Below are positions 21,468 through 28,833 of a stretch of DNA of 33,152 nucleotides, one piece after another. How positions within the stretch are numbered: position 1 is the first letter of the stretch; every line of letters starts with the position of its first letter. Origin of the DNA: a virus. Below the pieces are notes generated by a model. That model saw only the letters and a list, made by a program, of their open reading frames with translations, was not told where the DNA came from and ran no database searches. Both the position numbers and the translations under genes were made by a program. The stretch lies in UHGV virus genome UHGV-0189815. One strand, written 5' to 3'.

Positions 21468-21728
21468 ATGGATGAATCTATTACGCTGACTATTTCCGGT
21501 GTGGATGTTGTTTTCGAACCGAACGAAGTCGCCTATAACTCTTTTATCAATGAAATGGCAATGGATAACAAAGTTACGCCATCAGTTGAATATGTGCGCG
21601 CCATTGTTTCCCGCGAAAGTAAGGACGCATTAAACGGCATCCTGAAAAAGCCAGGTGCAGCCATTCAGATCGCGGCGGCTGTTAATAAACAGTACGCGCC
21701 GGAACTGGATATTGTTGTAAAAAAATAA
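21468..21728 (+). CDS. Tail assembly chaperone (P2 gpE / lambda G analogue)
   Basis: 86-aa ORF between the tube gene and the tape measure; ends at a slippery A7 run followed by a -1 frame extension. Confidence 0.6.
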   Translation: MDESITLTISGVDVVFEPNEVAYNSFINEMAMDNKVTPSVEYVRAIVSRESKDALNGILKKPGAAIQIAAAVNKQYAPELDIVVKK

Positions 21729-21913: not shown

Positions 21914-24247
21914 ATGGCTAGTGAATCGCTGACTTATATTATTTCTCTGATTGACCGCGCAAGCGCCCCACTGCGCGGTATTCGTCAGCAGGTCAGCGCA
22001 CTGGGCCAGACGGCAAAAAGCGGCGCGCAGCAGGTTGCAATGGGAACGGCGGCAATGTGGGCCGCAGGCCAGGCATTAAAAGGCGGGCTGGAACCGGCGA
22101 TCGAAATGCGCCGCGCGCTGGACTCTGTAAAGGCGCTGGACGTAACCGAAACGGGATTAAAGCAGCTTAAAAACGCGGCGCTTCAATTCAGTATGCAGTA
22201 CGGCGGCAGCGCGGCGGAGATCGTCAGCGCGTCTTACGATATTCAGTCCGCAATTTCTGGATTGTCTGCTGATGAATTGACCGGATTCACAACCACGTCA
22301 GCGGTTGTTGCAAAGGCGACAAAGGCCGATACGCAGACGATCACAAACTATATGGGGACCATGTACGGCATCTTTAAACAGACTGCTGACGGCATGGGCA
22401 AAATTAAATGGGCTGAGAAAATCGGCGGGCAAACCGCCTATGCGGCCAACCTGTTTAAATCTGACGGTGAATCAATGTCGCAGGCGTTTACGTCACTGGG
22501 GGCCGCTGCGCAAACAGCAGGCCGCAGCAGTGCGGAACAATTCGCGATCCTGGGTCAGTTGCAGTCAACAATGTCAGGCAGTGAAGCCGGGACAAAATAT
22601 AAGGCGTTTCTGGCGGGGGTAGGGAACGCCCAGAAAACGCTGAAAATGTCGTTTACCGATGCCACCGGGCAAATGAAGTCAATGCCTGCAATTCTCGACA
22701 TGCTGCATAAGCGGTTCGGGAATATCAGCAAAGTGGCGGATTCTGACCTGCTGAAAAAAGCGTTTGGCAGTGATGAAGCGGTTTCCCTGATCAAGTTGCT
22801 GATCAGCGATACGGACGGGCTGAAACGCAGTATCAGCGAGATCGACGCGATCGACGGGCTGGACGACGTAAAACGCGCCGCCGCCACGGTTGCCGATCCG
22901 TGGGAGCGCGCCGCCGCAGGTATTACGGCGGTAAAAATTGCTGTGGGGTCTGCGTTGTTGCCGGTTCTGGAACCGCTACTGATAAAAATGACAAAGGTCG
23001 CCCAGTCGGCTGTCGTCTGGCTGAATAAATTCCCGAACATTACGCGCTGGATCGGGATTGTTACGGCAGCAATTATCAGCGCCACCGCAGCCGGGGCCGC
23101 ATTTACGGTCATGCTGGGCGGTTTAAAGTTGGCTGGGGCCGGAATCCGGCTGGCGGGGATTTTCACCGGGATCACCCCGCTGTTTAAACTTCTGGCGCGT
23201 GGTGCTGGTGCAATTCTTAATTTTTCGGGGGCGTTGCGGTTTTTCCGTAACACCTTATTTGCTGCGCGCCTTGCGTTGATGTCATTTGGCGGGAGTCTGG
23301 CCGCAGTCACTGCCCCGATCTGGGGGCTGATTGCGCTTATTGCGCTGGCGATCGGTGCGGTTGTTGTCGCTGTCGTTAAGTTCTGGAATCCGATCAAGGC
23401 ATTTTTCAGCGGTTTTATCACTGGCTTCATGCAGGCGGCGCAAAAGTCGCAGGTGTTGCAAGGTGTGATCGCCGCGTTGGGGCCGGTATTTTCTGCTGTC
23501 TGTTTCGTGGTTAGTTGGTTGTGGAATGGCCTGAAAAGTCTTTGCGGCTGGTTTGGCGACCTGCTGACACCGATTCAGTATACCGAAAATGAACTGTCCT
23601 CTTTTTCTGACGCTGGCAGCATGGCCGGTTCTGTCGTTGCTGCAGCTTTCGACGCCATTCTGTTTCCGATCAATCTGCTGATCAGTGCTGTCAGTTGGCT
23701 GGTTAAGGTCTGGCCGGATGTGGTCGCGGGCTGGAACAGCGTCTGCGCCGCTTTCTCTGAATTTTCATTTGCTGATGCTTTCAGGTCGGGCGTTGAGTCG
23801 GTCGGCCAGTTGTTTTCCGGTTTGTGGGATTCAATCGCCCAGCAATTTTTCGGCGTCTATAACGGCATTGTTGAGCAGTTAAACAAACTGCCCGGCGTCA
23901 ACATTGAGTTAAAAGGAACCGCAGCGCCGGGCCAGACGGGAACGGCTGCGCAGGCGGCGTCAGTTGCCGCCGCTATTCCGGGGGGCGCGTCGCTCCTGGT
24001 TGCGCCAGTGTCGGGTGTTGCCTCTGCGTTTGTTGTCCCTGGCGCGCAGCCGCCTGCGCCACCTTCCAGCCCAGCCGTATTACGCGGCGGGGTGCTTGAT
24101 CCGGGTGTAGCCAACGTCAGCAGCAAAACAACAAAAAGCACGACCAATATAAATAACAGCCGCAGCGTGGGTAACGTCAATGTGTATGTGCAGCAGGCGC
24201 AGGACGCCCAGCAAATAGCGGAAATGGCGGAGATGTCGGCGGGATGA
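21914..24247 (+). CDS. Tail tape measure protein
   Basis: 777-aa ORF, Ala/Gly-rich and helical, with hydrophobic central segments; canonical position after the chaperone pair. Confidence 0.85.
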   Translation: MASESLTYIISLIDRASAPLRGIRQQVSALGQTAKSGAQQVAMGTAAMWAAGQALKGGLEPAIEMRRALDSVKALDVTETGLKQLKNAALQFSMQYGGSAAEIVSASYDIQSAISGLSADELTGFTTTSAVVAKATKADTQTITNYMGTMYGIFKQTADGMGKIKWAEKIGGQTAYAANLFKSDGESMSQAFTSLGAAAQTAGRSSAEQFAILGQLQSTMSGSEAGTKYKAFLAGVGNAQKTLKMSFTDATGQMKSMPAILDMLHKRFGNISKVADSDLLKKAFGSDEAVSLIKLLISDTDGLKRSISEIDAIDGLDDVKRAAATVADPWERAAAGITAVKIAVGSALLPVLEPLLIKMTKVAQSAVVWLNKFPNITRWIGIVTAAIISATAAGAAFTVMLGGLKLAGAGIRLAGIFTGITPLFKLLARGAGAILNFSGALRFFRNTLFAARLALMSFGGSLAAVTAPIWGLIALIALAIGAVVVAVVKFWNPIKAFFSGFITGFMQAAQKSQVLQGVIAALGPVFSAVCFVVSWLWNGLKSLCGWFGDLLTPIQYTENELSSFSDAGSMAGSVVAAAFDAILFPINLLISAVSWLVKVWPDVVAGWNSVCAAFSEFSFADAFRSGVESVGQLFSGLWDSIAQQFFGVYNGIVEQLNKLPGVNIELKGTAAPGQTGTAAQAASVAAAIPGGASLLVAPVSGVASAFVVPGAQPPAPPSSPAVLRGGVLDPGVANVSSKTTKSTTNINNSRSVGNVNVYVQQAQDAQQIAEMAEMSAG

Positions 24248-24579
24248 CTGAACAACTGTATATCGATCTGAAAATTGTTAACGGTGATTTTCTTTTGAAT
24301 ACCGGACGTGAACCAACGCTATGTGACAACCGCGTCAGCATTGGTCAGGACATTAAACACGCCATCATTGAAAGCAATCTGGCAACGCACCTTATCGGCC
24401 AGCGTTCCGCTGTCATGCGCAATGATGTTTATCTGCAAATTATTCTGATGGTGGAAACGGATAACCGCCTAATCCCCGGAACGGTGCGCGTGTATGAGGA
24501 AGCGGCAGGCCGCGTCATTGTGACGGCAGAAACGTATGAATTCGGACTGATTGATCCTGTTGAGGTTGTTTATGAGTGA
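24244..24579 (+). CDS. Small baseplate protein (gpW/gp25-like, putative)
   Basis: 111 aa, translationally coupled between tape measure and the J-like gene; size and position only. Confidence 0.4.
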   Translation: MTEQLYIDLKIVNGDFLLNTGREPTLCDNRVSIGQDIKHAIIESNLATHLIGQRSAVMRNDVYLQIILMVETDNRLIPGTVRVYEEAAGRVIVTAETYEFGLIDPVEVVYE

Positions 24580-25756
24580 TGCACCTAAACCCGATTACCG
24601 CGCCCTGTTGGATGACGCGGGCCTGCCGGGTACGGAAAAGGAAATTCAGGCGAAGTTTCAGGCTGTCGCCGACGACGAAGGGCTGGTCACTAACACGTCG
24701 TTAATGTCGCCGTTCTGGCGTCTGATTTCCGCCATTGTCACTAAACCGGTGCTGTGGCTGCGTGACGTGCTGGCAGATGTGGTTCTGACTAACCTTTTTG
24801 TTGCTACAGCGATTGGGACGTGGCTTGACCTGCTGGCGTGGGCGGTCCGTCTGGAACGTAAGGCGGCGACGTGCGCCCAGGGCGCGGTGACGTTTATTAA
24901 AACCAGTGCCGATGAAAATGTGACAATTCCCGCAGGCACTGTCATTCAGACCGAACGCGTTAACGGTGAAGTTTATCGCCTGATTGTGGATGCGACGACG
25001 ATGATCCCCGCAGGTATTGCGCAGCTATCGATCGCCTGTACGGCTGACACTGCGGGCAGTGCCTGGAACCTTGCGCCCGGTTATTACCATGTTTTACCCG
25101 TCGCAGTGGCAGGAGTTGCGGAAGTGACGACCGGCGATGACTGGCTGACGAAGCCAGGCGCTGATCGTGAGTCTGACGACGAATTTCGCCCGCGTATCCG
25201 TAACCAGTTTAACGTCGTGGGTAACTATCACATTGACGCCGTGTACCGCTCTGCGATCGCCAGTGTGGCCGGATTGAGTACCGATCGCATTTTCTTCTTA
25301 CATGACGCCCCGCGCGGACCGGGAACAGCTAACGCGTATTTATTGCTGGATGCAGGTGTGATCAGTGATCCGTTTATTGCAGCCGTAAATGATTACGTGA
25401 TGGGGCAGGGAAACCACGGACACGGCGACGATATGCAATGTTTCCCTATGCCGGAAACCTTTCATGAACTGGAAGTGACGCTTCACACCCCGGATAACGC
25501 GATGATTACCGATGCTGAACGTGCTGATCTGCCGGGGGTCGTTGAAAACATGGTGCGCTGCGCGTTTCGTGAGAATTCAGCGTATGACGTTACCAAAACG
25601 TGGCCCTGGTCGCGGTTTGGCTTTTCTAAGTTGGGTGAAGAAATTCACGAGGCGTTTCCCGCCCTGTCGTCTGTTGAATTTTCTCTTGATGACATCGTCA
25701 GTGAACTGAATATTCCGCGCTTGCGGTCATTGAGCGTGAAATGGGGCAGCGCATGA
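24572..25756 (+). CDS. Baseplate wedge protein (gpJ-like)
   Basis: 394 aa from ATG 24572 (overlaps the upstream stop); position upstream of the I-like and tail-fibre genes. Confidence 0.6.
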   Translation: MSDAPKPDYRALLDDAGLPGTEKEIQAKFQAVADDEGLVTNTSLMSPFWRLISAIVTKPVLWLRDVLADVVLTNLFVATAIGTWLDLLAWAVRLERKAATCAQGAVTFIKTSADENVTIPAGTVIQTERVNGEVYRLIVDATTMIPAGIAQLSIACTADTAGSAWNLAPGYYHVLPVAVAGVAEVTTGDDWLTKPGADRESDDEFRPRIRNQFNVVGNYHIDAVYRSAIASVAGLSTDRIFFLHDAPRGPGTANAYLLLDAGVISDPFIAAVNDYVMGQGNHGHGDDMQCFPMPETFHELEVTLHTPDNAMITDAERADLPGVVENMVRCAFRENSAYDVTKTWPWSRFGFSKLGEEIHEAFPALSSVEFSLDDIVSELNIPRLRSLSVKWGSA

Positions 25757-26286
25757 TGAACATTAAATTGCCCTGTTGGATGAACAAAGGCGAACCGCAA
25801 AAGCTGGCGGCAGCGTGCAAACGTTTCTGGCTTTGGCTTGACGCGTGGCTGCGCTGGCCGTTGCAGCAGTTTGATGCGCTGACCTGTAACGAAACGATCC
25901 TCTTTTTGCTGGCTTGGCAGCGTGACGTCACCCGCTTAAACGCGGAGCCGCTGGATCTGTTCCGCCGCCGCGTGGATTACGCGTTCATTAATGCGCAGGA
26001 TGCAGGCAGCACGGCGGGTTTTGCCCGGATATTTGAACGGCTGGAAATAGGTTTTGTCGGGATAAATGAGCGTGTAGACGGTATTGACTGGGACGTCATT
26101 TTGTTGGATTTGACCGACAGGCAGATCTCTGAACACGGTGATTTGCTGCGTGAAATTGTCCGGCAGTACGGGCGCACCTGCCGCCGCTATCGCTTCCAGT
26201 CGTTAACATCCACGCCGATCAATATTCAGGCGGGCAGCGTACACAATGACTATGTGTGTCACGCCGCGTCACTTATCAGGGAATAA
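25741..26286 (+). CDS. Baseplate/tail protein (gpI-like, putative)
   Basis: 181 aa; overlaps the J-like stop; immediately upstream of the tail fibre. Confidence 0.5.
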   Translation: MGQRMMNIKLPCWMNKGEPQKLAAACKRFWLWLDAWLRWPLQQFDALTCNETILFLLAWQRDVTRLNAEPLDLFRRRVDYAFINAQDAGSTAGFARIFERLEIGFVGINERVDGIDWDVILLDLTDRQISEHGDLLREIVRQYGRTCRRYRFQSLTSTPINIQAGSVHNDYVCHAASLIRE

Positions 26287-26292
26287 ATAACA

Positions 26293-28227
26293 ATGGCAAC
26301 AATTATCACGACGGCGTTTGAGCAATGGCAAGCCGCTGATCTGCTGACGCCGGGCGACATTTCGCTGGATGAATTTGTTTTGGCTAATGTGCCCGGCCTT
26401 GATCCGGATGCGGTGATAAACCGTGACGCCGGTCTGCCGGATGCCGCGCAAATTGTTTACCGCGAATCCGTCAACGCTGCGGGCGTGGTTAATAAAAACA
26501 CGGTTGCGTACTCGTTTACCCTGGGAACAAACGTCGGCAATTTTTCGTTTAACTGGATCGGACTGATTTGCAAAAAAACGGGCCTTTTAGCGATGGTGAC
26601 AACGGTCCCGGCGCTGGAAAAGGTGAAAACGACGGCGACGGAACAGGGAAACGCGTTTACCCGCTCGTTTTTGATTGAATTTAACGGTGCTGCAGACAAG
26701 ACAGGGATTAATACACCTGCCGAAACGTGGCAGATCGATTTTACCGCCCGTCTGACGGGTATTGATGATTATCAGCGTTTACTGAATATCGATCATTACG
26801 GCAGTGCGCTGTTTTTTGATGATGGGTGGCTGGTTCAACGTAGCGGGGTGAAATATAACTGCCAGCCTGGGTTGGGTTATGTGGCCGGTTTGCGATTGGC
26901 GAACGAAGCCGCGCAGGATGTCGCGATCGGGACTAAACCCGCCGCCGTCTGGCTGGATACTGTCTGGCAGGGGTCTGTCATGACTGCCTGCGTGCCGGTC
27001 ACTGATATCTGCGTTATTACGTCGGGCGATCTGGCTGAATATTCGGACGCTGCGGGGAAAACCCACTACGTATTCAAAATCGCTGAAATTGCCGCAGACG
27101 GGGCGGTCACTGATTTACGGCCAGTGCGTAACAGTGACGATCTGGATAAGCGCTATTTACGCCGGTCGCTAAATCTGTCCGATCTGGATGATGTAGTGAA
27201 ATCCCGCGAAAATTTAAAACTGGGGAATTCTGCAACCCGTAACGTGGGAACGGCGGCGGGGACGGTAGCTGCCGGGGATGATTCGCGCATTGTTCACGCG
27301 GTGCAGGATACGCGCAAGGTGAACAATAAGGCACTGTCAGCAGACATTACGCTGACATACAGCGATGTAAACGCCGTGCCGACAACGCGCAAAGTGAACG
27401 ATAAGCCGCTGTCAGCGGACATCACGCTGACGTACAGCGACGTAAACGCTGTGCCGACAACGCGCAAGGTGAACAATAAGGCGCTGTCAGCAGACATCAC
27501 GCTGACGTACAGCGATGTAAACGCCGTTCCGACAACGCGCAAGGTTAACAATAAGGCGTTGTCAGCGGACATCACGCTGACGTACAGCGACGTAAATGCA
27601 GCTGCCGCAAGCCATAAGCACCCCTGGTCGGATATTACCGGCGCGCCGGACTTTATCACCGTAACAAATGCTGATGCGCGCTACTTAAATAAGTACGCAA
27701 TGTACACCGCGAATGGGTCATTTACTGTCCCTGCCGGTGTAAAAAAAATGTCGGTAGAGGTGCTCGGCGGTGGCGGCGGTGGCGGTGGCGGTGGTGCATA
27801 TTCTGGTGGTGGGGGTGGTGCGTCAAAACCGGTGACGACAATTGTCACCGTCACACCTGGCGCGGTCCTTTCTGTCGTTGTCGGAGGTGGGGGGGTAGGG
27901 GGAACCGTAGTCACGTCATCAGCAGGCAATATGACCAAGGGTAATTCGGGGACTGCTGGCGGCGCGTCTTCATTTTCGGGAGTGTCGTCACCCGGTGGTT
28001 CTGGTGGTTATGGTGGTACTACTGGCGGTACTGGTACTACAAAAGCCACTGCGGGCAATAATGGAGCGTCGTCAGTATATGGCGATGGTGGTTGCGGGGT
28101 TATCGGTGGTAGTCACAATGGCACCGGATACGGTGCGGGCGGGTCGGCTGGTGCTTATGGGACTTCTGGTGCGAACTGTTTCCCGGGCGGCAATGGGTCG
28201 CCGGGTTTTGTTAAATTGTCATGGTGA
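26293..28227 (+). CDS. Tail fibre protein with internal tandem repeats and Gly-rich C-terminal domain
   Basis: 644 aa; four 25-aa repeats (TRKVNNKALSADITLTYSDVNAVPT); runs of Gly (GGGGGGGGGG...GGGGG) and a G/S/T-rich C-terminus. Confidence 0.8.
   Translation: MATIITTAFEQWQAADLLTPGDISLDEFVLANVPGLDPDAVINRDAGLPDAAQIVYRESVNAAGVVNKNTVAYSFTLGTNVGNFSFNWIGLICKKTGLLAMVTTVPALEKVKTTATEQGNAFTRSFLIEFNGAADKTGINTPAETWQIDFTARLTGIDDYQRLLNIDHYGSALFFDDGWLVQRSGVKYNCQPGLGYVAGLRLANEAAQDVAIGTKPAAVWLDTVWQGSVMTACVPVTDICVITSGDLAEYSDAAGKTHYVFKIAEIAADGAVTDLRPVRNSDDLDKRYLRRSLNLSDLDDVVKSRENLKLGNSATRNVGTAAGTVAAGDDSRIVHAVQDTRKVNNKALSADITLTYSDVNAVPTTRKVNDKPLSADITLTYSDVNAVPTTRKVNNKALSADITLTYSDVNAVPTTRKVNNKALSADITLTYSDVNAAAASHKHPWSDITGAPDFITVTNADARYLNKYAMYTANGSFTVPAGVKKMSVEVLGGGGGGGGGGAYSGGGGGASKPVTTIVTVTPGAVLSVVVGGGGVGGTVVTSSAGNMTKGNSGTAGGASSFSGVSSPGGSGGYGGTTGGTGTTKATAGNNGASSVYGDGGCGVIGGSHNGTGYGAGGSAGAYGTSGANCFPGGNGSPGFVKLSW
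27310..27600. repeat. About 3.9 copies of a 75-bp near-perfect tandem repeat inside the tail-fibre gene
   Basis: Unit starts at 27310, 27385, 27460 and 27535, with few substitutions; coding, in frame. Confidence 0.9.
27765..27820. repeat. GGC/GGT simple-sequence tract (poly-Gly codons) in the tail-fibre gene
   Basis: ggcggtggcggcggtggcggtggcggtggt... read directly from the sequence. Confidence 0.7.
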
Positions 28228-28230
28228 TCA

Positions 28231-28833
28231 ATGAAATATGTATATTTTGATTCTGAATCAATGAAGGTCCTAGCATGGCTGGACACCGATCAGTTTGACA
28301 TTGTTCTGCCTGAAACGGTCATGCAATTAACGGATGTGCAGTGGCGTTACCGCGATCGTGATTGCTGGGTAAATCCCGCTGCTGGAAAGCTCGTAACAAC
28401 GCCGCCACCGGGCGAATATTATCGCCTGGACGGTGATAAATGGATTTATGACGCGGCAGCATTTGCCGCCGCGCTGAAGCAGATTAAAGCGCAGGTTGAA
28501 CAGGATATAAAAGCACATAGGGACGCCGTCACCGCCGATTACATCGTGATCGACGGGAATCGCTTCCATAGCGACGCTAACAGCCGCATTCAGCAGATGA
28601 CGCTGGCAAAAATGGGACAGGCGGGCGCGGTTCCGCCCGGTCTGATGTGGCAAACCAAAAATAACGGGCTGATTGAACTGACCAACGCAATCGCCGCACA
28701 GTTTGAGTTTGTGACCATTGAACACGATATGCGTTTGTTTGCCGTTGCGCAGGCGCATATTGCGGCAGTGGATGCCCTGGGCGATATTGCCGCCGTTGAG
28801 GCTTACGACTGGTCCCTGGGGTGGCAACCATGA
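28231..28833 (+). CDS. Tail fibre assembly/chaperone-like protein (putative)
   Basis: 200 aa, immediately downstream of and translationally coupled to the tail-fibre gene; by position. Confidence 0.5.
   Translation: MKYVYFDSESMKVLAWLDTDQFDIVLPETVMQLTDVQWRYRDRDCWVNPAAGKLVTTPPPGEYYRLDGDKWIYDAAAFAAALKQIKAQVEQDIKAHRDAVTADYIVIDGNRFHSDANSRIQQMTLAKMGQAGAVPPGLMWQTKNNGLIELTNAIAAQFEFVTIEHDMRLFAVAQAHIAAVDALGDIAAVEAYDWSLGWQP

Follow-up and report, generated by a model that had tools for sequence, protein, structure and literature searches.

The window analyzed here, a stretch of 33,152 nucleotides (nt) from the virus genome UHGV-0189815, harbors a gene whose product of 644 amino acids (aa) is the tail fiber of a P2/HP1-like prophage, i.e., of a temperate myovirus of Escherichia and Salmonella (Table 1). 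A preliminary description of this DNA, prepared without database searches, had already designated the gene as a tail fiber gene, an assignment which is backed by the match of its N-terminal domain to Pfam family PF12571 (residues 2 to 157; 90.9 bits against a cutoff of 23; E = 1e-25), by matches to PHROG tail fiber families (e.g., phrog_8239, E = 2e-111), and by gene order. Residues 473 to 636 additionally match PF21722 (Gly_rich_2) with 36.1 bits (cutoff, 24.3). The gene is preceded by a tape measure gene, a DUF2590 gene, a baseplate J gene, and a P2 gpI-like gene and is followed by a DUF4376 gene and an HP1 ORF34-type baseplate gene; the succession of gpJ/gpI-like genes, fiber gene, and candidate assembly gene is that of a contractile-tail baseplate cluster. 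An identical protein has been deposited as “Tail fiber protein, Myoviridae sp. ctitt1” (DAE19494.1) from a metagenome-assembled virus, and the same 644-aa form with four repeat units is also found in Escherichia coli, related prophages being present in 8 of 5426 complete genomes of this species.

Table 1. Features of the tail fiber locus in the window and DNA identity of the window to a ZF8-1-type prophage
Feature	Position	Strand	Basis or remark
Baseplate_J gene	24551-25756	+	Upstream of fiber gene
Tail_P2_I gene (P2 gpI-like)	25741-26286	+	Upstream of fiber gene
Tail fiber gene	26293-28227	+	Open reading frame (ORF), 644 aa; Pfam PF12571 and PF21722; PHROG tail fiber families
Tail-collar fiber domain, aa 2-157	26296-26763	+	PF12571; presumed baseplate attachment
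Four in-frame 75-bp units, 25 aa each, shaft modules	27310-27609	+	Repeat finder and sequence
Repeat unit 1	27310-27384	+	Reading frame
Repeat unit 2	27385-27459	+	Reading frame
Repeat unit 3	27460-27534	+	Reading frame
Repeat unit 4	27535-27609	+	Reading frame
Linker with SHKHPWSDITGAPDF (HxH) motif, shaft to tip	27610-27693	+	Sequence
Tumor necrosis factor (TNF)-like beta-sandwich and glycine-rich (polyglycine-II type) domain	27694-28224	+	Presumed receptor-binding domain
Ten-glycine tract, aa 492-501	27766-27795	+	Putative ascending arm of first glycine hairpin
Second glycine tract, 5 Gly, after Ala-Tyr-Ser	27805-27819	+	Putative descending arm of same hairpin
Most divergent segment, loops of glycine-rich domain	27785-28186	+	blastn against ZF8-1-type prophage
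Protospacer in variable tip	28088-28119	+	32/32 match to E. coli type I-E spacer; ATG at 28085-28087
DUF4376 protein, 200 aa	28231-28833	+	PF14301; likely tail fiber assembly chaperone
Identity to ZF8-1-type, about 95%	24012-27607
Identity to ZF8-1-type, about 84%	27607-27785
Identity to ZF8-1-type, none detectable	27785-28186		blastn
Similarity to ZF8-1-type picks up again	Last ~40 nt of fiber gene

Downstream of an N-terminal block which is conserved to approximately residue 280, the fiber gene carries a tandem array that Tandem Repeats Finder reports at positions 27310 to 27596 (period 75, 3.8 copies, 90% matches, score 476) and that, read in frame, comprises four units. Each unit encodes TRKVN(N/D)K(A/P)LSADITLTYSDVNAVPT, the last one ending in AAAA instead of AVPT. 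The earlier characterization of these units as four nearly identical repeats holds for the protein, where the three internal units differ mutually at 0 to 2 of 25 residues, but the DNA is looser, with pairwise identities of 81 to 95%. Because the differences between units are mostly synonymous (four synonymous and zero nonsynonymous differences between units 1 and 3), the protein sequence of each unit is under selection. An array of 300 bp at such identity, together with ten consecutive glycine codons, is far beyond chance, and a repeat search retrieved no other comparably strong repeat family in the 33-kb window. The repeat units (residues 281 to 466) did not match the phage tail fiber repeat PF03406 even at E <= 10.

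Three further observations were made around the array. The 25 residues on its 5′ side (TRNVGTAAGTVAAGDDSRIVHAVQD, positions 27221 to 27309) resemble a degenerate extra unit, with approximately 60% DNA identity to the reference according to the repeat finder, and an YLRRSLNLSDLDDVVKSRENLKLGNSAT motif located further upstream is similar to repeats of solved short tail fibers (9zd7). On the minus strand, ORFs of 121 aa (27294 to 27659) and 85 aa (27681 to 27938) extend over the array and the glycine tracts; these look like by-products of repetitive GC-rich coding sequence and not like genes.

The number of units was found to vary among relatives, spanning 1 to 7 across the closest ~45 protein clusters. 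Near-identical genes carry 2, 3, 4, or 5 units, the complete chromosomes of a sister lineage show 3 or 6, and such differences occur between genes which are otherwise 99.9 to 100% identical. The proposal that the repeats gain and lose copies was, therefore, substantiated, and the comparison of repeat number across homologous prophages that had been suggested as its check returned numbers which are not identical (2 to 6 in near-identical or sister genes). In the complete genome of E. coli 40EC, five units are present in a gene with 1 substitution in the 1017 nt upstream and 0 in the 618 nt downstream of the array; its extra unit is unit 3, except that the last ten bases are those of unit 2, as expected if units 3 and 2 had recombined out of register. 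Chimeric units, of the sort that slippage or unequal recombination would generate, were likewise evident in shorter arrays: in a 2-unit metagenome allele, whose N-terminal 1017 nt are identical, the second unit is a unit-2/unit-4 chimera, and in a 3-unit allele, the final unit is a unit-3/unit-4 chimera. The sister fiber type possesses six units in five complete genomes, and among its complete chromosomes, CP178597 carries 6 units and CP058093 carries 3 (units 1, 5, and 6), with 2 differences in 1017 nt and 0 in 627 nt outside the array. In the fiber of E. coli N1420 (788 aa; NZ_CP176489.1, 893 to 3259), an extra domain of ~120 residues is located within the array, which consists of 4 units, the insert, and 2 units.

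The array is connected to the tip by a linker with an HxH motif, which is kept in all of the glycine-rich-type relatives listed and across which identity to the ZF8-1-type allele drops from 95% to ~60 to 85%. The domain which follows was previously noted as rich in Gly, Ser, and Thr, and residues 473 to 644 do indeed comprise 34% Gly, 12% Ser, and 10% Thr. A structure prediction of this C-terminal domain, also called for in the preliminary description, was performed with AlphaFold from an alignment of 45 sequences that covered the last 205 residues, and it yielded a confident model (mean predicted local distance difference test [pLDDT] score, 90.1; predicted template modeling score [pTM], 0.82) whose fold matches the fiber tip of cyanophage Pam3 (7ypx_A; score, 17.5; 180 residues aligned, 26% identity). 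Lower-scoring structure matches were to mycobacteriophage Bxb1 gp33 (12.2) and gp29 (11.5) and to the ALK glycine-rich domain (7.1 to 7.6), and Foldseek was concordant with these. Relatives of the domain are numerous, with 251 viral predicted structures in BFVD matching at E <= 0.001 and 527 relatives in a representative library at the same threshold; the latter were obtained by an exhaustive representative search, since glycine-rich words had overwhelmed a word-indexed protein search with the tip domain alone, which gave only 11 matches.

In the Pam3 fold, the TNF-like strands are prolonged as hairpin loops, six in number and with two glycine-rich motifs each, the loops stack in a lattice with the longest GGGGxGG motifs in the central loops, and the variable distal tips are the proposed receptor-binding site (PMC9608196). 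Pam3, Bxb1 gp33/gp29, S16 gp38, and ALK domains have been grouped as glycine-rich polyproline-II-type bundles (PMC13243192). Read by way of this fold, the segment composed of 10 Gly, Ala-Tyr-Ser, and 5 Gly would represent the first hairpin. Its first arm contains exactly ten glycines (GGC GGT GGC GGC GGT GGC GGT GGC GGT GGT), and the run of ten or more glycines reported earlier at about 27765 to 27820 spans both this tract and the second, interrupted one (GGT GGT GGG GGT GGT). In the tip model, the tract and its partner run show pLDDT values of 97 to 99, with neither helix nor strand assigned, which is consistent with extended polyglycine-II-like segments.

Ten glycines are present in relatives with the same tip from E. 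coli, Salmonella (~89% DNA identity in the N-terminal part), E. albertii, and N1420 (~77% DNA identity), the last of which retains the tract with AHP in place of AYS at the tip. The codon strings of the tract vary between these relatives, Salmonella possessing GGC x8 GGT GGG, and because the length is constant where the codons have diverged, a tract length of 10 appears to be under selection. In the wider family, 79 distinct members carry 3 to 11 Gly at the same position, after a conserved FTVPxGV...V.h strand; in the 45-member family alignment, 80 to 99% of sequences have Gly at the first six positions of the tract, and insertions concentrate directly after it, at the hairpin tip. The earlier view of the polyglycine run as a hypervariable simple-sequence tract is, therefore, mostly unsupported, as the tract is common to the Gly_rich_2 family, is confidently modeled, and yielded a single 8-Gly variant; the comparison of tract lengths across relatives favors conservation at ten, although that one allele speaks against strict identity. 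The ten-glycine run is mainly a conserved structural part of the glycine-rich receptor-binding fold. In E. albertii GCA_040935765.1 (2501 to 4286), the second glycine tract contains a G11 homopolymer with a surplus G that splits the fiber into 500-aa and 98-aa ORFs; either the allele is truly frameshifted or the sequence is in error at this base.

Sequence divergence from the ZF8-1-type prophage is concentrated in the loops between the glycine motifs of the glycine-rich domain. Protein identity in this loop region is 40 to 50% between tip types and 66 to 78% within a type, compared with 78 to 93% for the N-terminal part, which is 92 to 93% identical even in relatives with different C-terminal domains. 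Within a tip type, the first hairpin is 100% conserved, and substitutions cluster at the tips of the other loops. Because divergence concentrates in the loops, the loop region, and not the repeats or the glycine tract, is most likely the segment that sets host range. The suggestion that the fiber is a host-range determinant is thus plausible by homology to the receptor-binding domain of Pam3 gp24, but the variability resides elsewhere than in the repeats and the glycine tract.

The adjacent DUF4376 gene is 78.6% identical overall to its ZF8-1-type counterpart in a gene-anchored comparison, its first 350 nt (28231 to 28580) being 52 to 78% identical and its last 250 nt 86 to 100%, and the genes beyond it return to ~95% identity or more. 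The divergence of its 5′ part indicates that the variable module may not stop at the fiber tip but continue into the N-terminal portion of this putative chaperone. DUF4376 homologs are often fused to PF02413 (Caudo_TAP), some being named tail fiber assembly protein at source, and the DUF4376 protein is likely to act as a chaperone in the manner of Pam3 gp25.

Taken as a whole, these data are in our judgment most probably explained by a fiber of four modules, with a shaft of variable unit number, a structural polyglycine run, and a change of host range through the loops. The conserved N-terminal domain would dock the fiber, which presumably assembles as a trimer, to the baseplate. The second module would be the shaft array, whose 75-bp coding units are similar enough to misalign and may, therefore, recombine or slip out of register to give alleles with 2 to 7 units, a change in unit number presumably altering the length of the shaft. 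The short HxH linker would connect this shaft to the fourth module, a tip of the Pam3 gp24 type in which the strands of a TNF-like beta-sandwich are predicted to continue into glycine-rich hairpins that pack side by side in an extended, polyglycine-II-like conformation, their variable tips forming the putative receptor-contact surface. The first hairpin, the most conserved of them, would have the ten-glycine run as its ascending arm. Selection at the protein level would maintain this run, because packed segments leave no room for side chains, and DNA slippage would not be its main source; a run coded by GGC and GGT may nevertheless, on rare occasions, slip in frame from 10 to 8 Gly and so give a shorter hairpin tip. 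Changes in host range would occur mainly as the loop region diverges or is replaced, with the N-terminal part of the chaperone-like gene diverging moderately alongside it.

Several points weigh against this explanation. The tip model is a monomer prediction whose polyglycine-II geometry is inferred from the fold match, and the role of the tip in receptor binding and host range is plausible by homology to Pam3 gp24. In the full-length monomer model, residues 1 to 280 (pLDDT, 80 to 94) and 470 to 644 are confident, while the repeat region reaches only 35 to 60, so a gain in length per unit is presumed, as is any effect of copy number on fiber length or host range; the linker is of low pLDDT in the tip model. 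The 8-Gly allele and the frameshifted allele show that the glycine-coding tracts do undergo some mutation. Collapse of repeats in short-read assembly and recombination in vivo yield identical chimeric products, and some alleles from draft assemblies, possibly including 4-unit ones, could be artifactual. Taken to its extreme, the last point would mean that tandem units were collapsed in short-read assemblies and that copy number does not vary at all, which we regard as unlikely. Exact repeats of 83 nt (at a 75-nt offset) in the 5-unit array and of 122 nt (at a 225-nt offset) in the 6-unit array would, on collapse, give exactly the 4-unit and 3-unit arrays observed, and draft genomes hold many partial proteins that break off at the glycine tract or immediately ahead of it or, in several cases, inside unit 2, a warning that short-read data are weak evidence at both sites. 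On the other hand, the 3- and 6-unit alleles are present in complete chromosomes and the 5-unit allele in the complete genome CP070920, the 4-unit allele of the window recurs unchanged on metagenome contigs from separate samples assembled at k = 119 and k = 141, which exceed the 83-nt repeat, and distant lineages such as N1420 have other array layouts. Because the 3-, 5-, and 6-unit forms occur in complete chromosomes and the 4-unit form was assembled at these k values, the variation is real in kind, even if individual draft alleles may still be false.

A somewhat better candidate, although one to which we give distinctly less credence than to the four-module explanation, is that the array mainly serves as a stretch of homology at the shaft-tip junction for the swapping of tip domains, copy-number change being a neutral by-product. 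The 95% identity between fiber types extends to the end of the array at ~27607 and then falls, and some relatives share the N-terminal part and the units yet carry unrelated C-terminal domains (PF07484 collar, PF21882, and PF03903); set against this, the mostly synonymous unit differences place the protein sequence of the units under selection, and identity declines gradually after the array (84% to 27785), with no clean break. This reading is compatible with, and not exclusive of, the variable-shaft explanation. It is also improbable that the glycine-coding tracts act as a contingency locus, in which slippage would often alter hairpin length or switch the receptor-binding domain off and lysogen populations would release phages with mixed fibers. 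In two loci read from different assemblies, the 8-Gly E. coli allele (667 aa) is short of precisely one GGCGGT, the extra base in the G11 run of E. albertii truncates the protein at 500 aa, and many draft-genome proteins terminate near the tract; however, eight glycines occur on only 4 contigs as opposed to ten on ~93, the length stays at 10 where codons have diverged, the second tract of the window is interrupted, so that it forms no long homopolymer, the one frameshift might stem from a sequencing error, and contig ends near the tract could equally reflect branching of the assembly graph where fiber types diverge. We doubt that the GGN tracts are mutational switches, with in-frame gain or loss of GGCGGT retuning the length of the central hairpin and single-base slippage in the G run of the second tract turning the tip off; were this true, a single prophage lineage would, together with changes in the shaft repeats, release a mixed fiber population. 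Diversification of the variable region by a diversity-generating retroelement or by an invertible segment of the Mu G or P1 C type, considered since both target tail fiber tips, is highly improbable, and nothing in its favor was found. The 33-kb window contains neither a template repeat or second copy of positions 27600 to 28227 (its ORFs not having been scanned for reverse transcriptase) nor inverted repeats flanking this region, its sole inverted repeat being weak and unrelated to the fiber; for lack of such a second copy or flanking inverted repeats, both mechanisms are unsupported. The identified neighbors, from tape measure to baseplate, are moreover all on the plus strand, with no alternative tip exons on the opposite strand.

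The type I-E clustered regularly interspaced short palindromic repeat (CRISPR) spacer which matches the variable fiber tip at 28088 to 28119 is located in arrays of five complete E. coli genomes, and the ATG that precedes the match is a functional interference protospacer adjacent motif (PAM) for the type I-E system. Elsewhere in the window, a second type I-E spacer matches at 32 of 32 positions (21574 to 21605), next to a canonical AAG PAM (21571 to 21573), in a small gene flanked by the tail tube genes and the tape measure gene; this spacer appears to explain most of the 85 short CRISPR-type matches in complete E. coli genomes, as judged from one array inspected. A 53-nt CRISPR array match near 21574, considered as a phage-borne repeat-like element, proved to be the 32-nt protospacer with a chance resemblance to the repeat.

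Other searches were uninformative. NCBIfam gave no matches; megablast of the fiber region against a phage collection retrieved nothing, nor did tblastn of the tip domain, in the latter case probably owing to the low-complexity filter. A scan of one genome per species returned distant relatives only (<= 57% identity), of no use for the comparison of copy number, and the PDB sequence matches of the whole fiber were spurious, being to the (G4S)n linkers of single-chain variable fragment antibodies.

This fiber gene is an ordinary but neatly modular tail fiber gene of an E. coli prophage; the findings overturn no current understanding and contain nothing unexpected in principle. They do, however, place a Pam3-type fold on a P2-type fiber of a temperate phage of E. 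coli and Salmonella, i.e., in a genetically tractable host, and they provide a natural allelic series, in which genes that are otherwise identical carry 2 to 7 shaft modules and which may serve to test whether the length of the fiber affects adsorption. A striking polyglycine run in a phage protein should, furthermore, be read first as a structural glycine motif and not as a slippage tract.

The closest known system is cyanophage Pam3 gp24 with its chaperone gp25 (PDB 7YPX/7YFW; PMC9608196), whose fold is shared by the fiber tip. Pam3 gp24 is a minimal fiber of 250 residues with an alpha-helical N-terminal shaft, whereas the tip is carried here on a 470-residue P2-type base with a shaft of variable repeat number, and the downstream protein is a DUF4376 protein with no detectable sequence match to any solved chain. 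The Bxb1 tail wing brush gp33 and tail spike gp29 (PDB 9D93) belong to the siphovirus tail tip of an actinobacterial phage and represent different carrier proteins, while the likeness to the glycine-rich domain of ALK and LTK (PDB 7LRZ, 7LIR, and 7NX1), the ectodomain of eukaryotic cytokine receptors, is distant and at the level of fold only. The T-even type adhesin gp38 of Salmonella phage S16 (PDB 6F45) follows a shared logic of a conserved glycine scaffold with variable tips, the polyglycine-II lattice motifs of gp38 adhesins alternating with hypervariable specificity segments (PMC9608196, PMC13243192), but the domain described here is not a separate adhesin protein with a gp38-type polyglycine-II sandwich. 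For the repeat unit itself, the short tail fiber of Klebsiella phage KP1 (9f4b), with one copy of a similar motif, is the only solved chain retrieved, and the match is weak (E = 0.014).

The antireceptors of Streptococcus thermophilus phages possess collagen-like repeats which flank a variable region and which are variable-number tandem repeats. As in the fiber described here, their in-frame units adjoin the host specificity region and change in number by recombination; the unit of the present array is, however, a 25-residue TRKVNxKxLxxDITLTYxDV module, whereas that of the S. thermophilus phages is a Gly-X-Y collagen repeat.

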